NCBI GenBank assembly: GCA_031270825.1
Contig: JAISXH010000022.1
Coordinates: 33,710-97,709, forward strand
Reading direction: 5' to 3'
DNA: 64,000 nt
Origin: Bifidobacteriaceae bacterium
Lineage (GTDB): Bacteria > Actinomycetota > Actinomycetes > Actinomycetales > WQXJ01
Made by a program: the position numbers and the translations under genes. The notes below the pieces were generated by a model, which was given only the letters and a program-made list of their open reading frames with translations, had not been told where the DNA came from and did no database searches. Of this stretch, positions 4,243 through 23,995 are shown piece by piece (position 1 is the first letter of the stretch; every line of letters begins with the position of its first letter).

Positions 4243-4250
4243 TGGCAGCC

Positions 4251-6281
4251 ATGAGTCAACTCGCATCATCGCCAGTCCTGCCGAGGGCCGCAGATCCGGG
4301 CCGGGACGGCTCTAAGTTCACCCTTCGCCTGCGCGCAGACACTATGTACAGTGCATCCAACACCGGCGTTCGATTCTCCAATGTCACGAGTTCTTTCGAA
4401 ATTGCTGGCGACCATGCCTATAAGGCGTTCAAGGCCATCGCTCCGCTGCTCGACGGTTCTTACACCCGCGAGGACTTGGCCCGCGTGCTCGGCGGACCCA
4501 TGTGGGCGAAAGTGGAGGCCTTCGTCGAGCCGTTAGTATCCCGAGGATTCGTCCGCGAGATGGATCCCTGCCCCGACGTCGAGGTCTCGGACGAGGAACA
4601 GTCCAGATTCGCCGAACAGCTTTCGTTCATCGCCCAGTTCGTTGACGATCCAAAACGCCGCTTCGCCCGGTTTCGCGACTCCGAGATCGCTGTGGTGGCA
4701 GGCGGCGCGTTCGGAGAATGGGTCGGTCATGTGCTGGCCCGCAACGGACACCGGCGCCTTGTGGTGGTTGACGACCCGTTGGTCGAGCTGACCAAGTCTG
4801 CCAGTCGGCCTGCCGTACTGGTTATTCCACCGACGCCCGCTGGGGTCAAGCTGCTGGCCGACGGTCGGCTTGGCGATCTGGCCCAGTTAGTGTTGGCGGC
4901 CTCCGCTGTGGGAGACGACATAGTCATCGGCCCCTTGTCGGCCGCCGGAACTTCTCCAGTGACGTGGGCAGATGCGATCTCAGCGATGGCAGAGCATGAT
5001 TCGGCACGCGACGTCGCCCACTACTGGGCATCAGCCTGGGCCGGAGTCCACACGGGCTCCCCGGCCACCACGCTTCCCGCAGTGCAAAGACTGGCTGGAA
5101 CCTTCGCGGCAATCGACATATTCCGGGCCCTCACCGGCATCGCGGAATCGGAGACCGCTGACTCGGTTCTGGTGGTTGATTCGGCCCACGGCGAAGCCCG
5201 GCGCCATCGGGTGGTCCCCCACCGCCAGCTACATCGATCTAGACCAACTCTGCCGCCTGCTGGTAGAGGGGTGGGGGCGCTCAGGAGGAGCGCTCCCACC
5301 ACAGCCAGAGTGTCTCCCGAATGGGGACGCGTCTGCTCAACAGTCGCCGATTCATTGACTTCTCCGATCGTGGGATTCGAAGACGGCGACCTAGAGCAAC
5401 TGCCGGTCAAGGTATCCATCGCTCGCCTGGCGCTGGGCACGGCCGGGAGCGTTGCCGTGGGAGCGGCTGACCTGTGGGATGTCGCGGGGGCACGCGCTCG
5501 AGCTACCCGTCAGGCGTTGGCGTTGCGATTGGAGACCTGGGCCCCGTGGGAGGAATCCGACGGCCTTTTCAGGGGCCCTGATGTGGTGAGCGAGCTGGAC
5601 GGGATGATTGAGTCGAACGCTCGGTCCGTCGGGCCGCTGGTCCAAGGACGCGATCTGATCACCGACGACCTGGTCTGGGCGCCAGCGGCGGCGTTGGCCA
5701 CCATGTCCCTCGCCAATGCATCGGGCGTGTTCGCCCGGTCGGCCCTCGGCATAGGCGTCGGCTTGGACTACGACGAGGCCTTGGAGCGGGCTATCTCTTC
5801 AGCGGCCTCGCGCCGGGCGGTGTCCACGTTGGAGAGGCCGAGCCTGCCTGTGATTGATCTGGCCGATGAATCGCCGGAAGGTGTCTTCCTTCGCGAAAGC
5901 GCGAAACATGCTGGCGTGGAGATCGAAGTCTTGCGTGCGGGACGGCATCTTCAGCGCGATGTGGTGGTCGCACGGTGCCGGAGCGGGAACACGGCTCTGT
6001 GGGAGCTGGGGACCGGGCCGAGTGAGCACGAGGCGTGGGCGTCGGCGGTTGTAGGGGTCCTCGGGGCGGTCCGCAGAGCTCAGGCGGGCAAGCCACATTC
6101 CACTTGGACCATGACGGCCCTGCCCGCCTTCGATGCCATGGCCCTGGTGGCGGGTGTCCCCCAGGACAATCCGGGCGACGAGGCGCGAGCGTTCGCCTTT
6201 GACATCACGACTGACGAGGTGTCGGCGCTGGGCGTAGTTGCAGTTAAGGTGCTGACCGCAGCTGGGGAGGCGGTCCGATGA
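4251..6281 (+). CDS. TOMM/thiopeptide-type leader-binding docking protein (RRE + ThiF/E1-like, 'ocin-ThiF-like')
   Basis: N-terminal PqqD-like pattern 'IAPLLDGSYTREDLARVLGG...FVEPLVSRGFV'. Rossmann-like 'IAVVAGGAFGEWVGHVLARNG'. About 676 aa, sited between a YcaO and a SagB-type gene, with its stop overlapping the next ATG (ATGA at 6278). Confidence 0.65.
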   Translation: MSQLASSPVLPRAADPGRDGSKFTLRLRADTMYSASNTGVRFSNVTSSFEIAGDHAYKAFKAIAPLLDGSYTREDLARVLGGPMWAKVEAFVEPLVSRGFVREMDPCPDVEVSDEEQSRFAEQLSFIAQFVDDPKRRFARFRDSEIAVVAGGAFGEWVGHVLARNGHRRLVVVDDPLVELTKSASRPAVLVIPPTPAGVKLLADGRLGDLAQLVLAASAVGDDIVIGPLSAAGTSPVTWADAISAMAEHDSARDVAHYWASAWAGVHTGSPATTLPAVQRLAGTFAAIDIFRALTGIAESETADSVLVVDSAHGEARRHRVVPHRQLHRSRPTLPPAGRGVGALRRSAPTTARVSPEWGRVCSTVADSLTSPIVGFEDGDLEQLPVKVSIARLALGTAGSVAVGAADLWDVAGARARATRQALALRLETWAPWEESDGLFRGPDVVSELDGMIESNARSVGPLVQGRDLITDDLVWAPAAALATMSLANASGVFARSALGIGVGLDYDEALERAISSAASRRAVSTLERPSLPVIDLADESPEGVFLRESAKHAGVEIEVLRAGRHLQRDVVVARCRSGNTALWELGTGPSEHEAWASAVVGVLGAVRRAQAGKPHSTWTMTALPAFDAMALVAGVPQDNPGDEARAFAFDITTDEVSALGVVAVKVLTAAGEAVR

Positions 6282-7924
6282 GAACCACCGCGGGCCACAT
6301 GCGGACCGCCGAGGAGCCGTTGGCTTACCCAGGCGCCCGGCCGGGAACGGCGCTGACCGAACTCGGCGAAGACTGGCTCTCGATTCCCCTAGGAAGTGCG
6401 GCGCGTTGCTACGCCGACCTGATTTTCGATCGCGCCGCCAGCGGCATGCCGATCAAGAAATGGCCTGTCGACTGGGACGACGCACCGTGGCCGCAGAAGT
6501 TCTACCCGGCGGCGCAATTCACCAGTTTGCCCGATGTCGCACAGCCTGGAGGGTTGGCGGACACGGGTCGGGTGGAACTGGGTCGAGCCTTGTGGGACCT
6601 GATGTTCTATGCCTATGGGGTGGTGGCGCGACGCAGTCGAGTCAACAACAACGAGTCCACGGGCATGCTCATCAACGCCGAAGAGATCCGCTGGGGCCGG
6701 GGGGCTTCTTCCGGTGGAGGACGATACTGCGCCGGGGTCTATGTCGTGATCGGTCAAGGCCTCTCGCTGAGTTCGGGAATTTATCACTATTCGCCCATTT
6801 ACCACGGCCTTGAACTGCTTGCCGGAGGCGACTGGACCGGCGCTGTGGCCCACGCTCAAGGTTATGGCGCCGCCCAGTCTTGCTACCTGGTGATCTCGCT
6901 CAAATACTGGCAGTCAGCCTTCAAGTACAACGATTTCGCCGCTCAAGCGACCTGCATGGACCTGGGCACGTTGATGGGGACGTGGCGCTATCTCCTGGGA
7001 CCGTCTGCTGACATGATTCAGCCGGACCTGTGGGTGAACGAACCAGCCCTAGCCGGCATCCTGGGCATTGATTCGCAGGCCGAAGCCGTCGCCGCAGTCC
7101 TTGGCCTCGGCGGCGTCACCGCTTCACCGGTCGCCGCCAGACCCGCCCCAGCCATGCCGCAGGCGGACGAACGTTCCCGAGAGGTCTACACATTTGTCAC
7201 CCAGCGGGCGTTGCAACGCGATGCCCTGGCCGAGCGCGGGGTGCCGGCCGATTTGTCTGCGGACTTCCCGGTCCCGCAATCCCTAGCCTGGTCGGTCGAG
7301 ATCGATGCTGATGCCGCCGGCAGGATCGCCTCCACCCTTCGGCGCGAGACATCATTCGGGCGGTTCGATGGGATTCCGCTTCCGCGCCGCGCCCTGCTAG
7401 AGGCCCTGATCGAAAGCGACACGGCCCAGAACGTGACCGCCGGGACGTTCTCTGGGGCAAAGGATGGGGCTGTCAGCCTGTTCGTGTTGGTGAAGGGGGT
7501 CGAGGGTCTCGCTCCGGGCTGTTATAGGTACGACAGACCAAGTCAAGACTTGGAGCGAATCGGGGGACAGGAAGCAATGGCAGTCATTCAGCGACGCTAC
7601 TTTCTCAACAACTACGACCTGGGCAGGGCAGCTGCGGCAGTGATTTTCGCCGGAGACGTCGTAGCGGTCGCGGAGCGGTACGGAGTGCGCGGATACAGGG
7701 CCCTCAACACCGCTGTGGGCGCCGTCTGCCAACACCTCCATCTTGAATGCGCCCGAAGAGGGATAGGAGCGGGCGCCGCGCTCGGGGTCGACGCGGCCGC
7801 CGCAGCGGATGCTCTGAAGTTGGGGCGCAAGAGGCCCCGGCCGCTGCTGACCATGTTCCTCGGCCATGACCGACCGAACTCGGGTGCCCTCGACGTCCCA
7901 CTCGCTCCCGAAGGAAGCAGGTGA
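6278..7924 (+). CDS. SagB/ThcOx-type FMN-dependent azoline dehydrogenase (nitroreductase fold, two lobes)
   Basis: 'WGRGASSGGGRYCAGVYVVI' and second-lobe 'IQRRYFLNNYDLGRAAAAVIFAGD...GYRALNTAVGAVCQHLHLEC' resemble SagB-family motifs. Its context between the docking protein and LanB supports the call. Confidence 0.75.
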   Translation: MRTTAGHMRTAEEPLAYPGARPGTALTELGEDWLSIPLGSAARCYADLIFDRAASGMPIKKWPVDWDDAPWPQKFYPAAQFTSLPDVAQPGGLADTGRVELGRALWDLMFYAYGVVARRSRVNNNESTGMLINAEEIRWGRGASSGGGRYCAGVYVVIGQGLSLSSGIYHYSPIYHGLELLAGGDWTGAVAHAQGYGAAQSCYLVISLKYWQSAFKYNDFAAQATCMDLGTLMGTWRYLLGPSADMIQPDLWVNEPALAGILGIDSQAEAVAAVLGLGGVTASPVAARPAPAMPQADERSREVYTFVTQRALQRDALAERGVPADLSADFPVPQSLAWSVEIDADAAGRIASTLRRETSFGRFDGIPLPRRALLEALIESDTAQNVTAGTFSGAKDGAVSLFVLVKGVEGLAPGCYRYDRPSQDLERIGGQEAMAVIQRRYFLNNYDLGRAAAAVIFAGDVVAVAERYGVRGYRALNTAVGAVCQHLHLECARRGIGAGAALGVDAAAAADALKLGRKRPRPLLTMFLGHDRPNSGALDVPLAPEGSR

Positions 7925-7928
7925 CCTA

Positions 7929-10547
7929 ATGGAAGTGCTAGTAGACGAATACGTTCAATCTCGCGTCGCGGGTCTACCGGCACCTGTCTTGGCGAACCTG
8001 CGCACTAGCGCGGCGCTGCGCTGGGTCGGCGACCTTGACCAGGCCGAAGCTGCGCTGGCCGAGGCGGTTGAGGTAGCTACCGACGGTCTGTATGAGCTGA
8101 TCGGGAAAACAGATCGCGGTGTTGGGCGCAAGCACCTGGTCGAATTGCGCCGTAACCTGCATAACGGTCGCTACGACCGGGCGCGAGACAACCTGGACCG
8201 CGCTCCGGTGAGAGTACAGGAAACCGCTGCGGCCCTCGCCGAACCCGTATTCGCCGCCGCCAAGCGGCTCAAGGGCCTAGCTGAAATTGGCGAAAAGGCC
8301 TACCAGAACTGGCTCTTGGAAGAGCGACGCGGGCTGGGGAATCTCCTTGAAGAAGATGACTTCGCCCGCGGAATCGCCGTGGCGGCCCCGGCGGCGGCGA
8401 AAGACTTTCTCCGCTACCAGAAGGCCAGCGTGACGGGAGACGCCCTGACCAAGAACCAGCGTAAGGCAGAACGCAGCCTGCTGCAATATGCACTGCGCAC
8501 GGCCGCGAAAACATCTCCTTTCTCGAGCCTGACCCGCGTGGCCTTAGTGCGATGCGCTGACGGGGCCGCCAGGGATGACAGCGCCGAGACGCAGACCGTC
8601 GACGTCTCCCGGCCTTCGGTATACCCGATCTGCATCGCGCTCGATGCCTTGGGCCGGGACGAAGACGCCATCCTCCCGATGCGCGTCATGATAGCTCCAA
8701 TTATCGCAGAGGAGATGGACAACATGATCGTTGTCTATCGCTCTGAGTACGATTTTTCTGAAGCGACCGGAGAGGCCGACCAGGCGTCGGTTGTTGAATC
8801 GCTGGTGCGGATCGAACAGGGTCAGTTGTGCCGCATTGTCAAGGATGCCTACGAAGCCGGACATCGAACGGTAGCCACGCTAGTGGGTGCCATGGTCGAA
8901 TTGGGAATCACTCGAAAGACGGCGCTGGGGGCTATCCTCGAGCTGATCCGTCTGGGTTTTCTGATAGTTCCTGACCTGCGTTTTCACCCGCACATCGGCA
9001 CGGAAGCGACTCTCAGTTCGGTGGTTCGAAGGATCGACTCGCTCAAGACTGGAGAAGTAGGCCAAGCAGTCGCCGAATATGTCGATATTGCAGAATCGTT
9101 CTCCCATGTGGCCGACCTTTCCGAGCGCACATCCAAGATCGACTCGATCCGTGGGGCGGTGGAGCGTCTATACCAGGTCTCTGGTTGCCCTGGCGCACCG
9201 GTTCCCCATTCTGTGGTTTATGAAGATTCCGGACTGCTTGGCATTCGCGAACTACCCCGGTCCACGTTTGAGTTTGGTGGCGTCGACCGTCTCTTCACAT
9301 TGGCCGACATCCTCGACGACAACCAAGTTCCACGAGCGCTCCTGCGCGGGTTCTTCCTGAAGCTTTATGGGCCCGAGGGGCGCTGTCCCAACGTGCCGGC
9401 GTTCCTCGACGCCTTCAAGTCGGAACTGTACAACTCGTATCTCGGGCGAGATGACTCGAGTATTCGACGTGAGGCCGTCGCTTGCGATCCTTGGCTGCGC
9501 TGGGGTGAAGCTTGGCGATGGGACTCTGCTCGCGCCAGGTTGCTGGACCTCGTCGCCGCGGCGCCTCCCGAGGGGGGGCAGGTGGACATAGAGGAGTTCA
9601 TGGCGCCGGGTGGGCCGGTCATGGAATTGATGCCGGATGTCGTCTTTCCCTTCCGGCACATCAACCTGTTCGCCCAGATTGCTGAGGGCGGCACCCTAGT
9701 GGTCAACAACAGCTTTGGGGGGCCTGGCTTCGGCTTGTCGCGCTTTGCGCACCTCTTCGGAGGCGACGGAGAGAAGTGTGTCCGCTCGGTCGAACAGTTG
9801 GCCCGTTCGGCCGGAGTCTCCCTTCACGAACTACTCGGCGGCGCGGCAGTCACGAACCTGAATTTGCATGGTCCGCTGTTGGACGCTGAGTTGCGAATGC
9901 CAGGTGATCCCGAGGGGTCGCGGGCACGGCGGAGGACCGACATTTTCGACCTAGACCTCATTTACCGGGGCAGCCAACAACGGCTGGCGTTGGTCCACCG
10001 GTTCAGCGGCGAAGAGGTGATGCCCACGTACATGGGCTACCTGGTTCCTTTCGCCACTCCCACTTCCCATCAGTTGATCAGTCTGCTGGCACCTCCAGTC
10101 ACACTGGGGCGGGGCCTTTGGCGGGAGGAACAACCCACGAACGATCTGGAACAGGTCAAGGCCCGTCCCCGCGTGGTGATAGGCAACCGAATAGTTGTCA
10201 GCCGCGCCGCGTGGGACGTTCCCGCAGGATCTATTCCGGCGGAGGATCCGACATCTCCAGCCGGCCTAGTCGAGTGGCACCGCCGGTGGCGGTCGTTGGG
10301 ACTGCCTGACCTCTCGTACGTAACTATCAAGGACTCGTCGTCCAAGCGGCCAAAGCCCCGGTTCTATGACACGAGTTCGCTTCTCGCCTCGGCAACGCTA
10401 GCTCACGAATGGCGCACACGAGGCGGGGTTCTTCGGGTCACGGAGGCCCTTCCGGTCCCACCGCTACTGGACGACACGAGCAAGGCCCGAGTCGAAGAAT
10501 TCATCGTAGGTTTCAGCGCAATCGAAAGAACGGAGGAAGTGATATGA
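7929..10547 (+). CDS. Lantibiotic-dehydratase N-terminal (glutamylation) protein, split-LanB type
   Basis: 872 aa. 'LQYALRTAAKTSPFSSLTRVALV' and 'HINLFAQIAEGGTLVVNNSFGGPGFGLSRFAHLF' look like Lant_dehydr_N. The ATG at 7929 follows GAAGGAAGCAGG. The ORF-track start at 7866 overlaps the SagB gene. Confidence 0.8.
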   Translation: MEVLVDEYVQSRVAGLPAPVLANLRTSAALRWVGDLDQAEAALAEAVEVATDGLYELIGKTDRGVGRKHLVELRRNLHNGRYDRARDNLDRAPVRVQETAAALAEPVFAAAKRLKGLAEIGEKAYQNWLLEERRGLGNLLEEDDFARGIAVAAPAAAKDFLRYQKASVTGDALTKNQRKAERSLLQYALRTAAKTSPFSSLTRVALVRCADGAARDDSAETQTVDVSRPSVYPICIALDALGRDEDAILPMRVMIAPIIAEEMDNMIVVYRSEYDFSEATGEADQASVVESLVRIEQGQLCRIVKDAYEAGHRTVATLVGAMVELGITRKTALGAILELIRLGFLIVPDLRFHPHIGTEATLSSVVRRIDSLKTGEVGQAVAEYVDIAESFSHVADLSERTSKIDSIRGAVERLYQVSGCPGAPVPHSVVYEDSGLLGIRELPRSTFEFGGVDRLFTLADILDDNQVPRALLRGFFLKLYGPEGRCPNVPAFLDAFKSELYNSYLGRDDSSIRREAVACDPWLRWGEAWRWDSARARLLDLVAAAPPEGGQVDIEEFMAPGGPVMELMPDVVFPFRHINLFAQIAEGGTLVVNNSFGGPGFGLSRFAHLFGGDGEKCVRSVEQLARSAGVSLHELLGGAAVTNLNLHGPLLDAELRMPGDPEGSRARRRTDIFDLDLIYRGSQQRLALVHRFSGEEVMPTYMGYLVPFATPTSHQLISLLAPPVTLGRGLWREEQPTNDLEQVKARPRVVIGNRIVVSRAAWDVPAGSIPAEDPTSPAGLVEWHRRWRSLGLPDLSYVTIKDSSSKRPKPRFYDTSSLLASATLAHEWRTRGGVLRVTEALPVPPLLDDTSKARVEEFIVGFSAIERTEEVI

Positions 10548-11608
10548 CTTCCCAATTGACACCCATCCGAGCATCCTTGATCGGCCGGCGGCCCGAGTGG
10601 CTATCGTTCCACATTTTCTATGGCTCCAACCCGCTTGGACTCCTCACCCGCTGTGTCCGCCCGCTCGTCCACCAGCTCAAGACTGAAGGCAAACTGGAGC
10701 GGTGGTTCTACATTAACTATTGGCTAGAGGGCAACCACATCCGCTTGCGCCTAGGCGTCCCGGACAAGGCGACCGCGACAGAAGTCGAAATGCGGGTCAC
10801 TGTAGCTGTGGAGGAATACTTGGCGCTCAACCCCTCTTTTCATCCGGCAGCCGAATTGGAGTCGACGGACTATTACGCTGAGCTGTTCGAGGCCGAGTTT
10901 TCCGCAGAAGAACGCGGGCAATACTTCAACGCCGACGGCACGCCAATACTGCAGCCGGACAACAGCGTTCGGATACGCCGTTACGAACCCGAGTGGGACC
11001 GCTACGGAGGCGCCAAGGGCGTTGAGATCGCAGAGGAGCACTTCGAGCTCTCAGCGGAGATCGCCTCCAAACTCATAGCTAAAGGGAACATGTCGGTGCG
11101 CAGCTTCCAGCTCGGTGTCGGCGCCGAGCTTATGGCTGTTCTTGTCGGCGTCCTGTTCCCGAATCCGGCCACCGGGCGGGCCTTCCTTGAGAATTATCAC
11201 GCCCGCTGGAGTGGCATGTTCGGCACGACGAAGAACTATGTTGAGCGCCACAATCAGGGACGGTTCACCGACAATCGCCGCGTCATGATGAACCATGTGG
11301 TCCCCGTGTGCCAGGCCGCACGGGCCGGTGGCCACGGCCTCACAGGTGTGCTCAAGGAATGGCACGACGCTGTGACTCACACGCGCAACCGTCTGGAGGA
11401 CGTAGGCCGGAACGAGGAGTTGCGCTTCGCTTGGGAAGGAGGCGAGGAGACCACCAGCGACATTGACCGCCTGTGCTGGCGGGAGGGCTTTTCGCTTCAG
11501 CACATGATGGACAATCGCCTCCTGCTGTCGGTCTCTGATGAGGCTTATCTGTCTTTCGAACTCCTCAAAGCGCTTGAGACGGCGGATGTGGATGAGGTGG
11601 CAGTATGA
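10544..11608 (+). CDS. SpaB_C / thiopeptide-type bacteriocin biosynthesis domain protein (glutamate-elimination enzyme or [4+2] pyridine synthase; not distinguishable by eye)
   Basis: 'WLSFHIFYGSNP...LERWFYINYWLEGNHIRLRL' is the characteristic N-terminal pattern of the Lant_dehydr_C family. ATGA overlap with the LanB stop at 10544-10547. Confidence 0.75.
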   Translation: MTSQLTPIRASLIGRRPEWLSFHIFYGSNPLGLLTRCVRPLVHQLKTEGKLERWFYINYWLEGNHIRLRLGVPDKATATEVEMRVTVAVEEYLALNPSFHPAAELESTDYYAELFEAEFSAEERGQYFNADGTPILQPDNSVRIRRYEPEWDRYGGAKGVEIAEEHFELSAEIASKLIAKGNMSVRSFQLGVGAELMAVLVGVLFPNPATGRAFLENYHARWSGMFGTTKNYVERHNQGRFTDNRRVMMNHVVPVCQAARAGGHGLTGVLKEWHDAVTHTRNRLEDVGRNEELRFAWEGGEETTSDIDRLCWREGFSLQHMMDNRLLLSVSDEAYLSFELLKALETADVDEVAV

Positions 11609-12735
11609 ACCGCACAGCTGACGCGCGAACTTGGAGCCCGAGCCTCTCGGACCGCCTATTGATTGGACCACCCACGTGGAACGGCGGGGCCATGACAGCT
11701 GAGATCGCCTTGGCGGGAGAAGCTCGAACTTGGAATGCTGGCCTGCTCGAACTCCTCGTTTTGGAGTCGATCGACGGCGAACGCGACATCCCCGCCATTG
11801 CGGCACACGTATCTGAACGGACCGGCCGTGCGGTCGAAACCGGGATGGTTGGTCAAGTCGTCGGACGGTTGGCGGTCAACGGCATCGTACAACGTGACTT
11901 GGGTGTGGAGACCGAATCGATGCGCCAGGCGGACGCTCGATCCGATGAAGCAGCGAAGGCGATGGACGGCGTCGAACGCATCGATCAGGGGCTCTTTGGA
12001 ACGCTATCTAGTGCCATGTGGAAGCTCGGACGGCGCCTTCCTACCGTCGGGATCGCTTCGGTGGCGGCCGGCGCGGCTCTTGCCGCCGTAGCACTTTTCG
12101 CCGTGAACGCTGATGTCTACCTGGCAGCGTTGCGAGCTGTGCGCCATGGGCGGGCGGCCGATGCCGTGATCGCGCTGGTGGCGTGCCTCGCCTGGCAGCT
12201 CCTAGTTATCGTGGCGCACGAATTCGCTCACGGACTGACCTTTAGTTCGATCAACATCCGCCGGCCAGTCCTTGCGCTAACCAAAGTCGGGCGCAGGACC
12301 CTGCCCAACACTCAGCTAGACGGACTGTGGCTGGTGCCTTCCACCGCTCGGCGGCTAGCTGTGGTGGCGGTCGGCCCGCTCATCTCAATCTCATCGGCGA
12401 TCGTGCCCGCTGCCGTGCTCGTGGTCACAGCGCCAAGCTCGCTCTTGGCTGACTGGGCGGTATTCGCCCTAAGCATGGAAATCCTAATGGCCGTCCTCAA
12501 CCTGGGCCCATTTCGCTATTCCGACGGCACACGGCTTATCGAATCCTGGGCGAGGTGTCGCAACCTGCCGGCCCTCGCTGTCGCAAGGGTCGTGGCTAAA
12601 CAGCCGCTCCGGGCCGGTGTCCCCAGGCGGGCCCGCCGCGCCATCGCCGCCTACCTGCCCGCGTCAGGTCTCAGCTCGCTCTTGCTGCTTGCAGCGGCCG
12701 CCCTGTGGGTCTTGACCGTACTGGGGGTCGTCTAA
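11605..12735 (+). CDS. Fusion of a PqqD-like (RRE-type) N-terminal domain to an M50-like polytopic metallopeptidase
   Basis: 'HEFAHGLTF' (HExxH) and 'NLGPFRYSDGTRL' (NxxPxxxxDG) with at least 5 hydrophobic helices. The N-terminal 'LLELLVLESIDGERDIPAIAAHVSERTGRAVETGMVGQVVGRLAVNGIVQ' follows the PqqD/RRE pattern. ATGA overlap with the preceding gene. Confidence 0.7.
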   Translation: MNRTADARTWSPSLSDRLLIGPPTWNGGAMTAEIALAGEARTWNAGLLELLVLESIDGERDIPAIAAHVSERTGRAVETGMVGQVVGRLAVNGIVQRDLGVETESMRQADARSDEAAKAMDGVERIDQGLFGTLSSAMWKLGRRLPTVGIASVAAGAALAAVALFAVNADVYLAALRAVRHGRAADAVIALVACLAWQLLVIVAHEFAHGLTFSSINIRRPVLALTKVGRRTLPNTQLDGLWLVPSTARRLAVVAVGPLISISSAIVPAAVLVVTAPSSLLADWAVFALSMEILMAVLNLGPFRYSDGTRLIESWARCRNLPALAVARVVAKQPLRAGVPRRARRAIAAYLPASGLSSLLLLAAAALWVLTVLGVV

Positions 12736-12768
12736 CGCCCCATTCCCCGCGAAAGCGGAACCCAAAGC

Positions 12769-12790
12769 TTCGAGGCCACCAGGCCTCGAG
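12769..12790 (+). other. Stem-loop between peptidase gene and precursor gene (plus GNRA hairpin CCGCgaaaGCGG at 12747-12758)
   Basis: tTCGAGGCC-acca-GGCCTCGAg forms an 8-9 bp stem with a 4-nt loop. No T-tract follows. Confidence 0.35.
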
Positions 12791-12868
12791 GGGGCAGCGG
12801 GCCAGCCGGTCCGCGCCAAAACCTGAATGATCCGGGCCAATTGGCCCCAGAACCACAAAGGAGCACCC

Positions 12869-13048
12869 ATGTCCAACACCGATATCGCGGGCCTTGCCGC
12901 CGAGCTTGACGCTCTGAACGCCGAGACGCTGGAAGTCAAGGATTACGTCGACTACTCCGACGCAGCCTTCGCCTCAAGTTCGTCCTGCAGTTCGACCACT
13001 TCCACGTGCTCGTCCTGCAGCTCGACATCGTCGTGCGCCGCGCTGTGA
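12869..13048 (+). CDS. RiPP precursor peptide (59 aa): acidic helical leader + Ser/Thr/Cys-only core
   Basis: The ATG at 12869 lies 7 nt after AAAGGAG. Sequence: MSNTDIAGLAAELDALNAETLEVKDYVDYSDAAFA-SSSSCSSTTSTCSSCSSTSSC-AAL. It sits inside the biosynthetic operon, directly upstream of the ABC exporter. Confidence 0.85.
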   Translation: MSNTDIAGLAAELDALNAETLEVKDYVDYSDAAFASSSSCSSTTSTCSSCSSTSSCAAL

Positions 13049-13058
13049 CCGGCCGGCA

Positions 13059-13130
13059 CCGACAGTAGGCCGCAATGGCGGCTGTCGGAGGGGTCCGGGC
13101 GCGGTCTAGGCCGTTCTAAACCCCTCCGAC
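13059..13130 (+). terminator. Two mutually exclusive stem-loops immediately after the precursor stop (possible partial terminator / mRNA-stabilising hairpin)
   Basis: CCGACAG(13059-13065)/CTGTCGG(13082-13088) competes with GTCGGAGGGGT(13084-13094)/ACCCCTCCGAC(13120-13130), which is an 11-bp stem. No clear U-tract. Confidence 0.4.
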
Positions 13131-13174
13131 ACCGCCTTGAACCGCAGTTCGATTCCTACAAGAGGAGGCACGCA

Positions 13175-14173
13175 GTGAGCACTTCCGGCCTAGCGCTATT
13201 CATGGGCAACAGTCGTGTGCGAGACCTTTCCGGCAGCCCGATCCAGGCGAAACCGCCGAAGGCCGACTCGCCCGCCATCGCAGCACGAGGCGTCAGCAAG
13301 ACCTACGGGACCGTGGCAGCCCTGACTGACGTGGATCTCGAGGTCGCCCCCGGCGAGTTCTACGGGCTAATCGGGCCTAACGGAGCCGGCAAGACCACTC
13401 TGATGGAGATTATCCAAGGGTTGCTTGCCGCAGATTCGGGAACCATTTCGATACTCGGCGGTAGACCCGCCGACCGTTCTCCGGCGCTCCTGCGCCGGGT
13501 TGGCATCCAGCCCCAGAACACCGCTTTCTTCACGCGGGCGACCGCCCGTGAACACCTAACAACACTGGCCGACATCTACAGGGTTGAGCGGCGCCGAGTC
13601 GACTCGACGCTCGAGGCTTTCGGATTGGTCAGCGCGGCAAAGACGCGCGTGGACAAACTCTCGGGCGGAGAACGCCAGAAGCTGGCCGTGGCTTCGGCGA
13701 TGCTCCACGACCCGGAAGTGCTGTTCCTGGATGAACCCACAGCCGCGATGGACACCGAGTCGCGGGCCGAATTGGTCCACATGCTTAAGGGCCTTCGCGC
13801 CGGAGCGACCACCGTTCTTTACACCACCCATCTGCTGCACGAAGCAGAACGTCTGTGCGACCGGATCGCCATTCTTGACCACGGACAGATCATAGCGAAT
13901 GACACACCCGCTCAGTTGCTGGCTGATTCAGGTTTGCCTAGCCGCATCATTCTGCCGCTGGAGGCCGGCCGACTGGACCGGATCAAGTCCCTTCCCGAAG
14001 TGTTGGAAATCGACCTGCGAGACGGGCAGGTCGAAATCGCCGTCATGGCGGCAGGACCGGCGCTGGCCGCCTTGGTTCGTGCCGGTCTGGACGTGTCCGA
14101 CGTCCGTGTCGAGGCGGCGACTTTGGAAGACGTCTTTCTACGGCTCTCTGGAAAGGAGCACCACGATGAATAG
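13175..14173 (+). CDS. ABC transporter ATP-binding protein
   Basis: Walker A 'GPNGAGKTT', signature 'LSGGERQK', Walker B 'VLFLDEPT'. The GTG at 13175 follows AGAGGAGG. Confidence 0.95.
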   Translation: MSTSGLALFMGNSRVRDLSGSPIQAKPPKADSPAIAARGVSKTYGTVAALTDVDLEVAPGEFYGLIGPNGAGKTTLMEIIQGLLAADSGTISILGGRPADRSPALLRRVGIQPQNTAFFTRATAREHLTTLADIYRVERRRVDSTLEAFGLVSAAKTRVDKLSGGERQKLAVASAMLHDPEVLFLDEPTAAMDTESRAELVHMLKGLRAGATTVLYTTHLLHEAERLCDRIAILDHGQIIANDTPAQLLADSGLPSRIILPLEAGRLDRIKSLPEVLEIDLRDGQVEIAVMAAGPALAALVRAGLDVSDVRVEAATLEDVFLRLSGKEHHDE

Positions 14174-14909
14174 CTTTGTGTCTCTGGCGAGGGCGCAAGG
14201 GCGAGCCAGCCTGCGCGATCCCGCGACGTTGTTCTTTACTTTCCTCTTCCCCGTCCTCCTGCTGGTGGTGTTCTCGCGGGCGTTCGGTCAGGCGGCGGGG
14301 CCTGATGGTGTTCTCGCGATGCAGGCGGTGGGCCCGAACGTGGTGGCTTTCGGCGCCGCCTATGTTGGGATGTTCACGGCTTCCCAGTCGCTGGTCGAGT
14401 GGCGCGCATCCGGAATGAGCCGGGTCCTTTTCGCCGCGCCGGTCCGAACCGGCGGAGTGCTGGCTGCGAATCTGGCGGTCGGTCTGGCTTTGGGGCTCGC
14501 CCAGGCCGGGATCCTGGTGGCGTTGTCCGTGTTGCCGGGCCTCAACATGTCGCTGTCCGCTAGCGCCTGGCTGGCCCTACCAGTCGTGACGCTGGGCATA
14601 GCGGCCTTCTTCAGCATTGGCATGGTGATAGGGGCGCTGTGTAAGACGGTGGCGTCAGCCGCAGGTGCGATCAACGCAGTCGTTTTACCCATGGCCTATG
14701 TCTCTGGCGCTATGCTCCCGGCGGAACTCTTGCCGGACTGGGCCACTGCGATCGGTCGCGCTCTGCCGATGCGCTATATGGTCGAAGCGATTGGCGGCAG
14801 CCTGACCGGAGTGGCGCCGTCGTCCACGATCGGTCTGGGAGCAATCGTCTTGGCTGGGGTCGCGGCATTATTCTTTGGTGGCGCCACGAAGATCGTAAAA
14901 TGGCTGTGA
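14166..14909 (+). CDS. ABC-2 type transporter permease
   Basis: The ATG at 14166 overlaps the ATPase stop. Six hydrophobic segments, and the size and position are typical of ABC-2 exporter permeases. The ORF-track start at 13899 lies inside the ATPase gene. Confidence 0.8.
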   Translation: MNSFVSLARAQGRASLRDPATLFFTFLFPVLLLVVFSRAFGQAAGPDGVLAMQAVGPNVVAFGAAYVGMFTASQSLVEWRASGMSRVLFAAPVRTGGVLAANLAVGLALGLAQAGILVALSVLPGLNMSLSASAWLALPVVTLGIAAFFSIGMVIGALCKTVASAAGAINAVVLPMAYVSGAMLPAELLPDWATAIGRALPMRYMVEAIGGSLTGVAPSSTIGLGAIVLAGVAALFFGGATKIVKWL

Positions 14910-14912
14910 CCA
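14763..14912 (+). repeat. Left copy of 150-bp direct repeat (3' end of permease gene + first codons of YcaO-2)
   Basis: Hand alignment to 18127..18276 shows 5 mismatches in 150 nt. Confidence 0.9.
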
Positions 14913-16600
14913 CGCCGGCTGAGACTGGCGCTAAATGGATCCGCCGCCTTGGATTCGACACCGTTCTAGTTCACCCGGCACCGGCCAAGGACGCTCTTGG
15001 CTTCGAGCAGGAGCTGCAGCGGCGATCAGCCGACCTCGCCGAGAAGTTTGTTTTCGCAGGCGGCTCCGATGCTGGTGGCCGTGAGCTGACAAACGGGCCA
15101 AGCCGTTTTCCTGGTGCCAGCGGGTTGGCCGACGCGGTCCAGGATTTCGCCAACGAGTGCGGACTGTGGCAAGGGTCCAATGACGAGGCTGTCCTATGGC
15201 CCGTGCTTGAGATCGACTCGCGGGCCTGCACCCTCAGGCGCTTCGGCATCCGAACGGCTCCGAGTGACGGGTTGCGGGCAGTCAGCCCCGACCCTGGCCG
15301 TCGCGGCGGGCTGTCGCGCGAATCCCCTCTGGAAGCACTCGATCTCCCTCCAGACGTGGCGGCCGGACAGGGTTTGGGTTACCTCGGTAACACCGGCGCA
15401 TGGGGCCTTGAGTGGACCACGGCCGCACCGGTTTCCGACAAGGTTTGGATCGATGTCGGTGGAAGACCCTTTGAATTGAACTGGTCAGGACACGAGAACA
15501 CTTACGAACTGTCGTTGCGGTCATGCGTGCTGGAAGGATTGGAGCGCACGGCTGGAGCGCTTGGCGGCGGAACGCAGGTCGTTGTCTCCCCTGCGGTTGA
15601 ACTCGACGCGAGGTTCATGTCCCCCGGCGCGTTCGGACGCTACCCGGACTCCGCGTACGAGCATGAGCTGGTCGCGTTCGATCCAGCAGAGAGCCATGAG
15701 TGGGTGGAAGCACAGAGTCTCACGAGTGGCGAACCCGTGTATGTGCCGGTGGAGCTGGTGCATTATGGACGTCACGTTGCGCGCCGTTGGGCCTTTGGCA
15801 CGTCCTCAGGTTGGGCGGTCGGTTCGACATCGGAAGAGGCGGCATTCTTCGGACTGGTCGAGCTTCTCGAGAGAGACGCGATTGTCTCCAGCTGGTACGG
15901 TGGGATCTCCCCGACGCCGGTCAACGCGTCAACCGTGGAAGAAGTTCAAGACATATTGTCCAGGGCCGCTCTCCTCGACTGTCAGTTTCATGTCAGCCAA
16001 GTCCCATCTCAAATCGGGATGCCCGTCATGGTCGCGGTTGCCAAATCGCCGGAGGCCGCCGTGTTCGGATCGGCTGCACATCCCGATCCGCGCCGGGCTT
16101 TGATCGGCGCGGTCAACGAGGCCTGGGCCTACTTGCCGGAGAGGGAACGCACGGCGCGGAGGTTGCGGTCTAGGGGCCTCCTGCCGAAGGCGGGGCCAGC
16201 TAACGTGGAAACCATTGACGACCACGCCTCGTTGGCATTCGAGCCAACCCTCCTGATCGGCCTGGACAGATTCACGCATGACGACAGCATCGCCGGGTTC
16301 CCCGTCGGCGACATAGGGCCTTGGCATCCAAACGCCCTGGCCGAACGCGGACCTCTGGGCGCAGCAGTCGATCAGTTGGCCGGACACGGTCTCGAGGCTC
16401 TAGTTGTCGCAGCGTCTTCTCCGACAGCCCAATCCATGGCTGTCCATGTGGTGGCATCTCTCGTGCCCGGTCTGGTTCCAATCGATTTCGGATATCGCCG
16501 CCAACGGGCGCCGCAGATGGACCGAATCCTCGAACTGGCTGAGCTGTTCACCGGGCAGCGCCCCGAAGCGCCGTGGCCCGAACTCCACCCCTTCAGCTGA
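14900..16600 (+). CDS. Second YcaO-domain protein (YcaO-2), stand-alone
   Basis: 'WAFGTSSGWAVGSTSEEAAFFGLVELLERDAIVSSWYGG' and C-terminal 'SLVPGLVPIDFGYRRQRAP'. The start overlaps the permease stop by 10 nt. Confidence 0.9.
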   Translation: MAVTTPAETGAKWIRRLGFDTVLVHPAPAKDALGFEQELQRRSADLAEKFVFAGGSDAGGRELTNGPSRFPGASGLADAVQDFANECGLWQGSNDEAVLWPVLEIDSRACTLRRFGIRTAPSDGLRAVSPDPGRRGGLSRESPLEALDLPPDVAAGQGLGYLGNTGAWGLEWTTAAPVSDKVWIDVGGRPFELNWSGHENTYELSLRSCVLEGLERTAGALGGGTQVVVSPAVELDARFMSPGAFGRYPDSAYEHELVAFDPAESHEWVEAQSLTSGEPVYVPVELVHYGRHVARRWAFGTSSGWAVGSTSEEAAFFGLVELLERDAIVSSWYGGISPTPVNASTVEEVQDILSRAALLDCQFHVSQVPSQIGMPVMVAVAKSPEAAVFGSAAHPDPRRALIGAVNEAWAYLPERERTARRLRSRGLLPKAGPANVETIDDHASLAFEPTLLIGLDRFTHDDSIAGFPVGDIGPWHPNALAERGPLGAAVDQLAGHGLEALVVAASSPTAQSMAVHVVASLVPGLVPIDFGYRRQRAPQMDRILELAELFTGQRPEAPWPELHPFS

Positions 16601-16648
16601 CGGTAGCCAACTTGGCTGAGCCGCCTGGAACCAACGAAAGACCGAAAC

Positions 16649-17275
16649 ATGCATGACACCGCAGCCTCGCAGGCATCCGTCGTAAGCGTGGACGCGCAGC
16701 CGTCCTTCCGGATCCCTAATCCCGCCGTGGTCTTACGATGGGCCACCCTCTACTACGCGATCGCGGCGGCCGTCGCCCGTCCGGTGATCGGCGGGTTGGC
16801 TGCCGCCGTCGCAGTAGGCCTGGCTTGGGCACCGCCGATCCCGGGCTTCGGGACAGCCCGACAAGGCCTTGAGGTCAGTCCTGTGGCTGCGCCGGAGTCC
16901 TCTCACCGTGTCCCACGGCGGCTTCGTCAAGCGGTGCTTGCCACCTCCTGGCTTGAAGCTGTGGTGTTCGGCGCGGGAGGACTGGTCTCTTGGGCCGTGG
17001 ATGAGTTGGCCGCTTGGCCCATCGCAGTCGCGGTGGCCGCCACCTGCCATATCACAACTGTCGGCCTGGTCGCACGGCGGATCATTGACGCGTTCGCCCT
17101 GCCGATCGCCTGGGCGTCCTGCGTGGCAGCACTGGCAGTCACCGTACAAGACGGCCACCCCTTGCGTGGTTGTGCGATCGCTGCTGCGACACTCGCCCTG
17201 GTCACCGCGAGTTATGCTCGCCACATCGGTATTCGGGAGACTTCTTCCAAGGCCGAGGACGGTGGCTTGCGATGA
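16649..17275 (+). CDS. Hypothetical integral membrane protein (about 4 TM helices)
   Basis: Ala/Val/Leu-rich hydrophobic segments. Its stop overlaps the next ATG (ATGA at 17272). I recognise no motif. Confidence 0.5.
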   Translation: MHDTAASQASVVSVDAQPSFRIPNPAVVLRWATLYYAIAAAVARPVIGGLAAAVAVGLAWAPPIPGFGTARQGLEVSPVAAPESSHRVPRRLRQAVLATSWLEAVVFGAGGLVSWAVDELAAWPIAVAVAATCHITTVGLVARRIIDAFALPIAWASCVAALAVTVQDGHPLRGCAIAAATLALVTASYARHIGIRETSSKAEDGGLR

Positions 17276-17760
17276 GCGGGCTGCCGATCCGCGTGGTGAC
17301 GTTTTCCCGACACGGTTCCACCGATGAGGTGGGCAGGTGGGTCGCGCGATCCTTGGCGGGGTTAGTTGATGCTTCGGTCTACCAAAATGATTCGACCGGC
17401 GATCCGGAGACAGGCCTTGGCGCGGCGAGCAGGGTTGTGGTCGGAATGCCTGTCTACGCCAACCATTGGCGTCCGGAGGCGCGGCGCTTCCTGAACCGCT
17501 GCGCGTCAACCTTAGGGCAACGGGAGGTCTGGCTCTTCACCTGTTCGCTCGGCGGTGGCTTGGACGACCTGGACCACCTCGAGCCAGAGCTTGTGCCAGT
17601 AGGTCTAGCCCATTTCGGAGGCAAACTGGACTGGGATCGTCTGGCCGTCCCCGAGCGCATGCTGATGCGGGCCCTCGGCCAAACGTCGTGCGATCGGCGC
17701 TCGCGCGCGGATGTCGAAGCCTGGGCCGCTTCGATTGTGCGAACTGCGGCGTTGACCTAG
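17272..17760 (+). CDS. Flavodoxin-like domain protein (HemG/flavodoxin_5-like)
   Basis: 'IRVVTFSRHGSTDEVGRWVA' resembles the flavodoxin phosphate-binding loop. About 162 aa, with 'VVVGMPVYANHW' and 'VWLFTCS' beta-strand patterns. Confidence 0.55.
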   Translation: MSGLPIRVVTFSRHGSTDEVGRWVARSLAGLVDASVYQNDSTGDPETGLGAASRVVVGMPVYANHWRPEARRFLNRCASTLGQREVWLFTCSLGGGLDDLDHLEPELVPVGLAHFGGKLDWDRLAVPERMLMRALGQTSCDRRSRADVEAWAASIVRTAALT

Positions 17761-18126
17761 AGGGCGGCTAGACCGATTTCGGCAGGCTTCGTGATCGCAT
17801 GGAGCACTGGCCGCCTGAAGGGAGTTTGGCACTCTGGGCCCCAATTCTCGCCGCTTGCCGGAGCGATTCAGCCGGTCGGGGTGGCCCTTGAACCGGAGTT
17901 CTGCCGCTTGATGGCGTGAGTCGTGCGTCGGGCTTGTGGCTTGGGGGTTCGGTGACGGTTTGGCGGGAATGTGTCACTTAGCCGGGTGGCGACCTCTGCG
18001 GGTGCGGGGTCCAGCGTGCGAGCAAGAAGGGCAAGCGCGGTGGGCTGGTTGGCCGGAACCGCAGGCCCGCGTCCCCTTGCGTACTGTGCCTTTGCGGAAT
18101 CAGCACAATCACCGTCCCCTTGCGTA

Positions 18127-18360
18127 CTGCCGATGCGCTATATGGTCGAAGCGATTGGCGGCAGCCTGACCGGGGTGGCGCCGTCGTCCGCGATCGGTCT
18201 GGGAGCAATCGTCTTGGCTGGGGTCGCGGCGTTGTTCTTTGGTGGCGCCACGAAGATCGTCAAATGGCTGTGACCAGCTCGAGAGGTTTGTTCGCGGAGG
18301 CTGCGCCGACGCTGGCGGCCGCCCGCCGCCAAACAGGCTAAACCGCTTCGCCAGCGCCAA
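18127..18360 (+). pseudogene. Remnant copy of the permease 3' end / YcaO-2 5' end junction (right copy of direct repeat plus decayed YcaO fragment)
   Basis: 18127-18276 matches 14763-14912 at 145/150 positions. 18281-18360 aligns more loosely (about 70% by eye) to 15041-15125, with about 128 bp (14913-15040) missing. A 16-bp direct repeat GTCCCCTTGCGTACTG (18071 and 18114) sits at the left junction. Confidence 0.8.
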
Positions 18361-18437
18361 GGGGGAGGCAATTAAACGGACGATGCCGCGCACCCACCTG
18401 AGGTGCACGGCATCGTCCCGGAAAAGCCGGGCAGCGC

Positions 18438-20285
18438 CTACAGCTCGGCGGCCTGCAAACGCTCGCGAAGCGCGACCAACTGGCCGGTCAAAGCGGCCGG
18501 GAGGCGCTCGCCGAACTGGGCGAAATACTCCTCGGTGAGATCGGCCTCGGCCAGCCAGGCGGCCGGATCGATCGCGAATAGCTGCTCCAGGGTGCCCTCA
18601 GGCAAGTCCAGACCCTCGACGTTGAATTCGCCCGGAAGCGGAATCTGGCCGATGGGGGTCTTTTGCGAGCCGGCGTCACCGAGGACGCGAGCCACGGCCC
18701 AGGCCAACACACGCGAGTTCTCGCCGAAGCCGGGCCACAGGAACTTGCCGTTGGCGTCCTTGCGGAACCAGTTGACCTGGAAGATCCGCGGCGCTTTGTC
18801 GGCCAGCAACTCGCCCATGTGCAGCCAGTGGCCCCAATAGTCGCCCATGTTGTAACCGCAGAACGGCAACATGGCGAAAGGATCACGGCGCAACGCGCCG
18901 ACCGCGCCTTCGGCCGCGGCCGTTTGTTCGGAGGAAACCGTGGCGCCAATGAACACGCCATGCTCCCAGTTCAGGGACTCATTGACGACGGGCACGTTGG
19001 TGGCGCGGCGCCCGCCGAACAAGATGATGTCGACCGGCACGCCCTTCGGGTCGTTGAACTCCGGGGCGATGATCGGGCACTGCGAGGCCGGCGCGGTGAA
19101 GCGCGAGTTCGGGTGCGAACTGGGAGTCTCTGAGGCGGGCGTCCAGTCGTTTCCGCGCCAGTCGATCAGATGGGCGGGCGGGGTGTCCGTCATCCCCTCC
19201 CACCAGACGTCGCCATCGTCGGTCAGGGCCACGTTGGTGAAGATGGTGTTCTCTGTCATCGACAGCATGGCGTTCTTGTTGGTCTTCATGGACGTGCCGG
19301 GGGCCACGCCGAAGAACCCGGACTCCGGGTTGATCGCGTACAGCCGGCCGTCCGGGCCGGGCCGCATCCAGGCGATGTCGTCGCCCACGGTCTCCACTTT
19401 CCAGCCGGGGATGGTCGGCACCAACATGGCCAGGTTGGTCTTGCCGCAGGCGGACGGGAAGGCCGCTGTCACCACGGAGGTCTTGCCCTGCGGGCTGGTC
19501 AGCTTCAGGATCAGCATGTGATCGGCCATCCAGTCCTCGTCATGGGCCATGACCGAGGCGATTCTGAGCGCGTAGCACTTCTTGCCGAGCAGGGCGTTGC
19601 CGCCGTAACCGGAGCCGTAAGACCAGATTTCGCGGGTCTCCGGGAAGTGCGTGATGTATTTCTCGTCGTTGCAGGGCCAGGCCACGTCAGGGCGTTCGTT
19701 GCCGTCTGCGTCAACCAGCGGATAGCCCACCGAGTGGACGGCGGGCACGAAGTCCACGTCTTCGGTGATCAGGTCGAGAGCCTGGCGACCCATCCGGGTC
19801 ATGATCTTCATGTTGATCACCACATACGGCGAGTCAGTGATTTCAATGCCCAGCTTAGAAATGTTGCCGCCCAGCGGGCCCATCGAGAACGGCACCACAT
19901 ACATGGTCCGGCCGCGCATGGAGCCCGTGAACACCTGATCTAGGATTTCCCGCATCTCGGCCGGGGCCTTCCAGTTATTGGTCGGGCCGGCGTCGATCTC
20001 CTTCTCGGAGCAAATGAACGTCCGCGACTCCACCCGGGCCACATCGCCGGGTTCCGAGCGGGCCAAGAAGGAGTTCGGCCGCTTGGCGGGGTTCAAGCGA
20101 ATGAGGGTACCGGAGGCAACCATCTCATCGGTCAAGCGCTTCCATTCCTCTTCCGAGCCATCAGCCCAGACGATCTCTTTCGGCTGTGTCTTGGCCGCGA
20201 CGTCGGCGACCCATTGGATGAGTTTGGCATTTTTGGTCGGCGCCGTCGCCGCGATGGCGGCAAACGAGGTGTCAGCAATGGTCAT
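18438..20285 (-). CDS. pckG: Phosphoenolpyruvate carboxykinase (GTP)
   Basis: '[19 protein letters not shown]', '[13 protein letters not shown]' and a length of 615 aa from the ATG at 20285 ('MTIADTS...'). The ORF-track extension to 20588 is a GC-driven run-on. Confidence 0.95.
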
Positions 20286-20581: not shown

Positions 20582-20641
20582 GCGGCAAGCAAGTGCGGCT
20601 TCGGGCCTGGGAATCCGTTTATTCACCGGATTCCCAGGCCG
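20582..20641 (+). repeat. 60-bp intergenic hairpin repeat, copy 1
   Basis: gcggcaagcaagtgcggcttcgggCCTGGGAATCCGtttattcaCCGGATTCCCAGGccg has a 12-bp perfect stem. It matches 38213-38272 at 53/60 positions. Confidence 0.8.
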
Positions 20642-23912: not shown

Positions 23913-23986
<74 letters not shown>

Positions 23987-23995
23987 CCATGTGGT

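Follow-up and report, generated by a model that had tools for sequence, protein, structure and literature searches.

The 64,000-nucleotide stretch of the 107,557-bp contig JAISXH010000022.1 analyzed here (the window), which comes from the metagenome-assembled genome (MAG) of a Bifidobacteriaceae bacterium (GCA_031270825.1), carries a thiopeptide gene cluster spanning about 450 to 18370. The right-hand part of this cluster contains an ATP-binding cassette (ABC) transporter permease gene followed by a cassette of three genes, which encode the second YcaO protein of the cluster (YcaO-2), a 208-residue hydrophobic protein (X208) and a Flavodoxin_5-like protein. Behind the cassette and a non-coding spacer lies a further copy of the permease tail, followed by a decayed piece of a YcaO gene (the stub), and together they (18122-18369) form a dead relic, about 250 bases long, of a former junction between permease and YcaO, located at the very right end of the cluster island. 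The reading we favor, and which we believe about as readily as we doubt it, is that YcaO-2, X208 and the flavodoxin-like gene were re-inserted, together with the spacer, between a resident functional permease and its already dead YcaO stub. What the sequence shows is the repeat, the anatomy of its junctions, two divergence classes within the relic, where the island ends, and that the cassette is conserved among relatives; which event came first, who the donor was and by which pathway the DNA recombined we infer from these.

Computed self-alignment of the window reproduced the direct repeat that the first-pass annotation had placed at the end of the permease gene and again behind the cassette, with the same coordinates and gene content (Table 1). 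The two copies align without gaps and are identical at 145 of 150 positions, in agreement with the five mismatches originally counted. A repeat search stretches the match to 14758-14912 and 18122-18276 (155 nt, 95% identity), which makes it the longest dispersed direct repeat of the 64-kb window, the runner-up being 60 nt long with 88% identity. The copies are arranged head to tail with a period of 3,364 bp. To the right of the tail, copy 2 has three nucleotides in place of the 127 nt of copy 1 (14913-15039), so that the skip, first estimated at about 128 bp, is a net deletion of 124 bp; the looser match said to follow it is real, with 64 of 90 positions (71%) identical in an ungapped alignment of 15040-15129 with 18280-18369. 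The local score of this match is 38, compared with 10.9 ± 1.4 (maximum 16) in 300 shuffles, and blastn reports it at E = 1e-11. The orphan permease-tail peptide (...CVLPMRYMVEAIGGSLTGVAPSSAIGLGAIVLAGVAALFFGGATKIVKWL) and the 26-codon YcaO stub open reading frame (ORF) at 18264-18341 (MAVTSSRGLFAEAAPTLAAARRQTG) were likewise recovered as described. A further ORF, 17971-18273, runs through the orphan tail, and both this ORF and that of the stub are pseudogene fragments.

Comparison of the two halves of the relic revealed an about ten-fold difference in divergence, with 5 differences over 150 nt in the tail and 26 over 90 nt in the stub (3.3% vs 28.9%; Fisher p = 1.9e-8). Four of the tail differences are synonymous third-position changes and one is non-synonymous (Thr/Ala), which gives a synonymous divergence (pS) of 0.10 and a ratio of non-synonymous to synonymous divergence (dN/dS) of about 0.09, values drawn from small counts, as there are only five differences. 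In this respect the tails resemble two functional genes that have diverged from each other. At each of the five sites an A of copy 1 stands against a G or C of copy 2, a polarity that is weak evidence by itself (two-sided p = 0.06), and the longest identical block between the two tails is formed by their first 47 nt. With the related locus L002 as outgroup, three of the five tail changes are assigned to copy 2. The high identity ends 3 nt past the permease stop codon, the point where selection on a functional permease would end.

Differences between the stub and YcaO-2, by contrast, are spread evenly over the codon positions (9/9/9) and biased toward GC (15 AT-to-GC changes vs 6 in the reverse direction; GC 0.72 in the stub vs 0.62 in YcaO-2), as expected of a pseudogene in a GC-rich host. 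The longest exact run within the stub match is 7 nt. Restricting the tail to its synonymous sites (4 of 40) does not close the gap, the stub still being more diverged (26 of 90; p = 0.023). The stub is nearest to the YcaO-2 of the window and not to the YcaO of L002 or of a second related locus, L081, and its derivation from an older allele of either lineage was rejected on that ground. In a third locus, L001, the 70 nt past the permease lie inside the stretch deleted from the stub and so have no bearing on its origin.

The left junction of copy 2 belongs with the tail and not with the stub. Here the sequence runs from the spacer into a 17-mer, 26 nt of further sequence, a perfect second copy of the 17-mer (CGTCCCCTTGCGTACTG) and then the tail, with the junction between 18126 and 18127 and the trinucleotide CTG common to the second 17-mer and the tail. 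This direct repeat had been described as 16 bp long; it is real and exact, and is longer by one base (starts at 18070 and 18113). No further copy was found at three or fewer mismatches in the window, nor in 89 fetched loci. We read the second 17-mer as a templated insertion at a microhomology joint, which is the anatomy of an illegitimate joint. For two neutral 17-mers, identity at all 17 positions has a probability of 0.003 if the joint is as old as the stub and of 0.57 if it is only as old as the tail, which places the left joint in the young class, and gene conversion from copy 1 cannot have maintained the 17-mer because copy 1 does not possess it. This argues that the left joint is young.

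Taken together, the age classes and the junction bear first on the simplest alternative, a recent tandem duplication that has been decaying ever since without further recombination. Such an event would account for the head-to-tail geometry and for a microhomology joint, and a joint of this kind, with its CTG and its 17-bp templated repeat, is indeed present. A single duplication should, however, have left a copy of uniform age, whereas tail and stub are about ten-fold apart within one copy and differ in substitution pattern as well. Because the divergence of the two halves differs significantly, as the first-pass annotation had also argued, a simple recent duplication is excluded and a breakpoint between tail and stub is required; the probability we would still leave to this explanation is close to nil.

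Re-insertion beside a resident tail and stub would explain these features by the following order of events. The earlier locus would have consisted of a functional permease, a YcaO stub and the terminator of the neighboring phosphoenolpyruvate carboxykinase (PEPCK) gene, the rest of the YcaO gene having been lost by deletion inward from the island edge while its 5' piece decayed. A 3.36-kb piece comprising a permease tail, YcaO-2, X208, the flavodoxin-like gene and 0.36 kb of spacer would then have entered from a close relative with an intact cluster. On one side it would have paired homologously within the 3' end of the permease, where the polarity of the differences would put any crossover in the first 47 identical bases; on the other side it would have been sealed by an illegitimate joint, through a 17-bp templated copy of spacer sequence and then CTG microhomology with the tail. 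Two geometries could produce this result: a circularized fragment integrated by a single crossover (Campbell type), or homology-facilitated illegitimate recombination with its illegitimate end 147 nt before the end of the resident permease. Either way, an intact operon would result, with an orphan tail and stub behind it.

We favor re-insertion over an old duplication because the left joint is young and illegitimate, the tail differences are biased toward synonymous sites, and identity collapses 3 nt past the permease stop. It also counts for re-insertion that tail and stub are contiguous in ancestral order and orientation and yet about ten-fold apart in divergence. The uniform polarity and the identical first 47 nt fit copy 1 as the donor sequence and copy 2 as the resident one. 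That a functional permease was retained beside a dead YcaO is plausible, as another related locus (L083) has a transporter pair without biosynthetic genes.

Both geometries have precedents. Experiments in Escherichia coli have documented single crossovers with circular DNA that duplicate 109-950 bp of the segment used for pairing (PMC3240628). The present locus is like such Campbell-type integrations in that direct repeats of the pairing segment flank the insert, their 150 bp lying within this range (PMC3240628), and in that the repeats can later recombine and remove it. It is unlike them in that the circle is hypothetical and would hold only 3.36 kb of cluster DNA without vector or replicon, in that its closure joint would be the 17-bp templated junction, and in that the case is a single genome. 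Homology-facilitated illegitimate recombination, in which a homologous anchor is combined with a microhomology joint, is known from naturally transformable bacteria and from conjugation (PMC3240628). The likeness here lies in the homologous permease side, the CTG microhomology joint with its filler, and the foreign or allelic DNA added beside the anchor; classical cases usually delete recipient DNA between anchor and joint, whereas here the joint is inside the anchor and 150 bp are duplicated. With either process in mind, we found that the 150-bp repeats flank 3.2 kb and that one end of the homology is illegitimate, since no further homology extends beyond the left end of copy 2, and the polarity of the differences is consistent, if weakly, with a donor and a resident copy.

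Several observations weigh against re-insertion. The clocks of tail and stub do not fit a single split (pS 0.10 vs 0.29, p = 0.023), and an extra assumption is needed, either that the permease was homogenized by recombination within the population or that the N-terminal part of YcaO evolves fast. All other genes of the cluster are intact ORFs, which is awkward if the cassette was long absent; it would require either that the cluster had a use without the cassette or that it was imported anew as a whole. Nor did the cassette show any independent sign of having an origin of its own: its GC content at third codon positions (GC3) is the same as in the other cluster genes, and it has diverged from L002 about as its neighbors have. 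Neither a relative without the cassette nor one bearing the remnant was found among the relatives examined, and the searchable collections yielded no strain-level variants. Finally, all evidence comes from one MAG contig and from small counts.

A further reading is that the cassette belongs to a long-lived presence/absence polymorphism with two chemotypes in one recombining population, in which the haplotype with the old stub and the full haplotype share a freely recombining permease, and the 150-bp repeats let the 3.36-kb segment leave as a circle and re-enter by homologous recombination without any recombinase. We consider this improbable.

The alternative that has to be weighed most carefully is an old partial tandem duplication. 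An ancient illegitimate exchange would have doubled the 3,364-bp unit; most of the second copy would then have been deleted, and its tail overwritten time and again from the functional copy by RecA-dependent gene conversion, while the stub beyond the 124-bp deletion was not reached by conversion and decayed. Gene conversion and concerted evolution between a gene and a pseudogene copy are known in bacteria, and the locus resembles such cases in having a patch of near-identity in a diverged duplicate, bounded by an indel that blocks extension of the tract. The head-to-tail layout with its period of 3,364 bp would follow directly, as would the high-identity patch beside a decayed part in which the longest exact run of 7 nt blocks further conversion. 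The three of five tail changes that fall on copy 2 fit a neutral copy drifting to GC. No import or donor would be needed, the cassette being ancestral and compositionally matched, and there would be no clock problem.

Against this stands above all the left joint. There the patch borders on a perfect illegitimate junction that looks young and that conversion is unable to produce, and at the age of the stub the 17-bp repeat should have diverged (P = 0.003) without any possibility of restoration from copy 1. Two coincidences would also be required, a 124-bp deletion that starts 3 nt past the stop codon and a large deletion that ends about 5 bp from the island boundary. Conversion should moreover leave older, diverged homology on both sides of the converted patch; we found it on the right, in the 71% identical stub, and not on the left, where 122 of 500 shuffles score as high. 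The 4:1 excess of synonymous changes is unexpected for a neutral copy as well, although this is a weak point (about 0.14 by hand estimate). On balance, we regard duplication followed by conversion as unlikely, and re-insertion beside the resident tail and stub remains the reading we prefer.

Searches for sequence matching the spacer in the window, the relatives and plasmids returned none, and left of 18122-18127 any similarity of the spacer to the permease or the cassette is no greater than chance. Several candidates for its identity were tried and rejected. As decayed copies of the permease, the spacer (17761-18112) and the first 17-mer with its flank were equaled in score by 122 of 500 and 134 of 500 shuffles, respectively, and a 10/14 match between spacer and permease spotted by eye is due to chance. 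A relic of a mobile element was dismissed given the lack of Pfam matches, the stops in all frames and the lack of plasmid matches. A mobile element or gene cassette in the wider sense (insertion sequence, transposon, integron or islet) was rejected too: the spacer ORFs have no Pfam match, the repeats are 150 bp of gene sequence and not a target-site duplication, there is no plasmid homology, and the cassette genes encode a YcaO, X208 and a flavodoxin-like protein.

The arrangement might instead be functional, with the repeats serving as a programmed or reversible device for excision of the cassette, or with the orphan tail expressed as a small membrane protein. Repeats of 150 bp and 97% identity do flank three intact tailoring genes, recombination between them would leave an intact permease, and the ORF at 17971-18273 reads through the tail. 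Yet no recombinase, transposase or att-like feature was found in the spacer or its flanks, and no promoter-like site in 17600-18600. The arrangement is also not conserved in L081, where the 3.2 kb behind the flavodoxin gene hold no copy of the tail; L002 has none either in the 241 bp available downstream. The stub, moreover, is frameshifted and decaying. We therefore think a functional arrangement very improbable.

An assembly artefact, in which the contig chains two strain haplotypes with and without the cassette, has some points in its favor, as the source is a MAG and the 97% identity of the tails lies within the between-strain range. No independent assembly of the locus was found in exact look-ups (YcaO-2, permease, P0001/P0022), and a metagenome scan with a degenerate 29-mer of the tail gave 0 matches in a collection that evidently does not include these termite-associated samples. 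Serial joining of two haplotypes would, however, need real sequence across the spacer-tail joint, where only the 17-mer is shared. A 17-mer is shorter than the k-mers usual in de Bruijn assembly. The longest exact block between the tails is 47 nt, and the joint is built like a biological illegitimate junction, with a templated insertion and 3-nt microhomology, so that an artefact appears very unlikely.

Analysis of the relatives revealed that the cassette is an ancestral part of the cluster family. In L082, which lies on the same contig as L002, the order is precursor, ATPase, permease, YcaO, a 192-aa protein and flavodoxin, with identities to the window of 97, 66, 70, 55, 36 and 55%, respectively. 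L081 has a permease tail, YcaO, a small protein and a flavodoxin, and the same 10-nt overlap of permease and YcaO is found in L082, L081 and L084, the last of which has a permease with 45% identity and neither an X208 nor a flavodoxin gene downstream of its YcaO. In a homologous cluster of Actinomyces oris (NZ_CP116225.1), four precursor genes are immediately followed by a second YcaO and then by the gene for a 192-aa protein. Since the order of permease and YcaO and their 10-nt overlap recur in the cluster family, the cassette is not a new gain and could at most have been re-acquired or have replaced an allele. The first-pass annotation had proposed that 14913-18276 was gained, or replaced an older allele, by recombination at the permease/YcaO junction; recombination at that place is the best-supported explanation, while the part of the claim that speaks of a new addition does not hold, given the order conserved in L082 and L081 and the equal GC3. 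The remnant, absent from both stretches searched in L081 and L002, is specific to this genome. The nearest permease, that of L001, is 84% identical, and its contig stops 70 nt past the gene.

Some further features of these loci were observed in passing. The A. oris cluster (L090, 151492-176886) is located on a 415-kb record typed as a plasmid, and has four tandem precursors, with no transporter between these and the second YcaO. The transporter pair of L083 (3461-5166) is a lone ATPase-permease pair with 53-55% identity to the cluster transporter; it is preceded by two small ORFs (129 and 55 aa), has no YcaO or LanB gene nearby, and may be an orphan resistance locus. In L081, a homologue of YcaO-1 on the same strand follows the flavodoxin gene and is split over two frames (3166-4862 and 5207-5739, overlapping tblastn pieces), with a fragmentary ABC ATPase after it; the split may reflect a frameshift or decay in this part of the cluster, or else an error of assembly.

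The relic ends where the backbone begins. In the closest relative, L085, whose PEPCK is 97% identical, nucleotide homology to the window starts at 18374-18376, about 5 bp past the end of the stub at 18369. No cluster or cluster relic was found next to PEPCK in five relatives (L085-L089) with 94-97% identical PEPCK proteins. From the start of the L085 homology and the differing downstream genes it therefore follows that the remnant is the outermost sequence of a cluster island in a variable spot beside PEPCK. Erosion of the island from its edge, halting at an indispensable terminator, would be expected to bring stub end and backbone start this close together, and the pattern counts for re-insertion as well. 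GC3 is 0.86 in PEPCK (0.86-0.87 across the adjacent PEPCK and purA genes) vs about 0.70 in the cluster, and we propose that the thiopeptide island was horizontally acquired. A protein of 615 aa (P0029) is 100% identical to the PEPCK of the window.

Around PEPCK, gene content varies among the relatives. The genes downstream differ in L085-L089 (one PIN/Mem_trans/MerR, two SbcCD, one AAA_14/DUF4143, one contig end), and the spacing of purA and PEPCK varies through inserted RND transporter genes; judged from these comparisons, the region downstream of PEPCK is a hot spot of gene turnover. A 60-nt intergenic element occurs at 20582-20641 and 38213-38272 with 88% identity, its first copy being located about 300 nt upstream of where PEPCK starts. 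The element forms a very stable hairpin (-37 kcal/mol, z = -4.6) and matches no Rfam family at the gathering threshold.

Table 1. Features at the right end of the thiopeptide cluster and its boundary (window coordinates)
Feature	Position	Strand	Remarks
ABC-2 type transporter permease, 247 aa	14166-14909	+	Pfam ABC2_membrane, E = 1.8e-23
Direct repeat, copy 1	14763-14912	+	Last 147 nt of the permease including stop TGA 14907-14909, plus 3 nt; holds the first 13 nt of YcaO-2
YcaO-2, 566 aa, second YcaO of the cluster	14900-16600	+	Pfam YcaO, E = 8e-55; overlaps the permease by 10 nt
X208, 208-aa hydrophobic protein	16649-17275	+	Conserved after YcaO-2 in relatives
Flavodoxin_5-like protein	17170-17760	+	Pfam Flavodoxin_5, E = 5.4e-14; ORF as listed
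Non-coding spacer	17761-18112	.	Closes the inserted segment; all six frames contain stops, no Pfam match
17-bp junction repeat, first copy (CGTCCCCTTGCGTACTG)	18070-18086	+	Inside the spacer; read as template
17-bp junction repeat, second copy (CGTCCCCTTGCGTACTG)	18113-18129	+	Perfect; adjoins the tail; its final 3 nt (CTG) double as the start of repeat copy 2
Direct repeat, copy 2	18127-18276	+	Orphan permease tail, stop codon, first 13 nt of a YcaO gene
Decayed YcaO remnant (stub)	18280-18369	+	Codons 47-77; frame shifted by the net 124-bp deletion
PEPCK terminator hairpin	18378-18418	-	Terminator-like site, 18 pairs; first conserved backbone sequence, right island boundary
PEPCK, GTP-dependent	18438-20285	-	Pfam PEPCK_GTP, PEPCK_N; backbone gene

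The cluster begins with two MerR regulators, YcaO-1 on the minus strand, an ocin-ThiF-like protein, a SagB-type dehydrogenase and a split LanB dehydratase, and continues with a 376-aa ORF, the thiazolylpeptide precursor, the ABC ATPase and permease, YcaO-2, X208 and the Flavodoxin_5-like protein. Its assignment as a thiopeptide cluster follows from the precursor, which matches NF033400 above the cut-off (E = 3.5e-10), the split dehydratase with Lant_dehydr_N and Lant_dehydr_C, the two YcaO genes, the ocin_ThiF_like protein and the SagB-type dehydrogenase. A pyridine synthase was not identified by sequence in the cluster, and the 376-aa ORF has no match. Thiopeptide clusters with two YcaO cyclodehydratases exist, for example those of the berninamycin type. 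With such clusters and that of A. oris NZ_CP116225.1 the present one shares a thiazolyl_B-type precursor, a split LanB, a SagB-type dehydrogenase, an ocin-ThiF-like protein, two YcaO genes and, behind the second of these, a protein of about 190-210 aa. The clusters of termite-associated Bifidobacteriaceae differ in having an ABC transporter pair between precursor and second YcaO, and a flavodoxin-like gene after it.

Among the individual genes, the permease has an ATG that overlaps the stop codon of the ATPase, and shows 100% identity to P0022, a protein from a Bifidobacteriaceae MAG with the annotation ABC transporter permease. P0001 is a further protein with 100% identity to the window. YcaO-2 matches the SagD-type model TIGR03604 below its curated cut-off (E = 2.8e-52) and shares 55% identity with P0002 and P0003 across its entire length. 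X208 has no match in Pfam, NCBIfam or the PDB; it is 33-36% identical to the ORFs after YcaO in L002 and L081, and weakly matches the 192-aa ORF after the second YcaO of A. oris. A role of X208 as a TfuA-like partner, which would suggest thioamidation, was considered and dropped for lack of a match in these three databases. The Flavodoxin_5-like protein, whose true start is probably near 17270, is 55% identical to its L002 orthologue and 41% identical to that of L081.

GC3 ranges from 0.66 to 0.78 across the cluster genes, with 0.69-0.71 in the cassette, the same as in the remaining cluster, and a foreign composition of the cassette was rejected for this reason. As the clusters of relatives also have a GC3 of about 0.6-0.8, the value is uninformative on how long the cluster has resided here. 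The precursor (12869-13048) shares 97% protein and 85% DNA identity with that of L002 (1017-1193), while the surrounding modifying enzymes reach only 36-70%; constraint on the entire precursor, including its leader, is unusually strong.

Elsewhere in the window, 58708-58914 holds an imperfect tandem array with spacings of 36 and 60 nt and 60-76% identity, inside a 728-aa ORF (58351-60537), which, judging from the DNA, probably encodes a proline/alanine-rich repeat protein. A 54-nt repeat (46752-46838 and 61977-62067) corresponds to two tRNA-Ser genes with anticodons GGA and GCT, and a tRNA-Pro gene is located at 23913-23989.

Whether it is a scar of Campbell-type or homology-facilitated illegitimate recombination or a gene-converted pseudogene, the relic belongs to a known kind of event, and no new element or mechanism is involved. 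Its value is that of an annotated case and of a warning on orphan ORFs. As a scar, it is a base-pair-resolved example of the remodeling of a cluster for a ribosomally synthesized peptide with post-translational modifications (RiPP) at a translationally coupled junction, in which a homology anchor in the transporter is combined with an illegitimate joint. The 150-bp repeats are a credible substrate for the RecA-dependent loss of the 3,364-bp segment in one step, with the resistance transporter kept intact. This flags YcaO-2, X208 and the flavodoxin-like gene as a unit that can be lost together, and such a loss would be predicted to change the product of the cluster.

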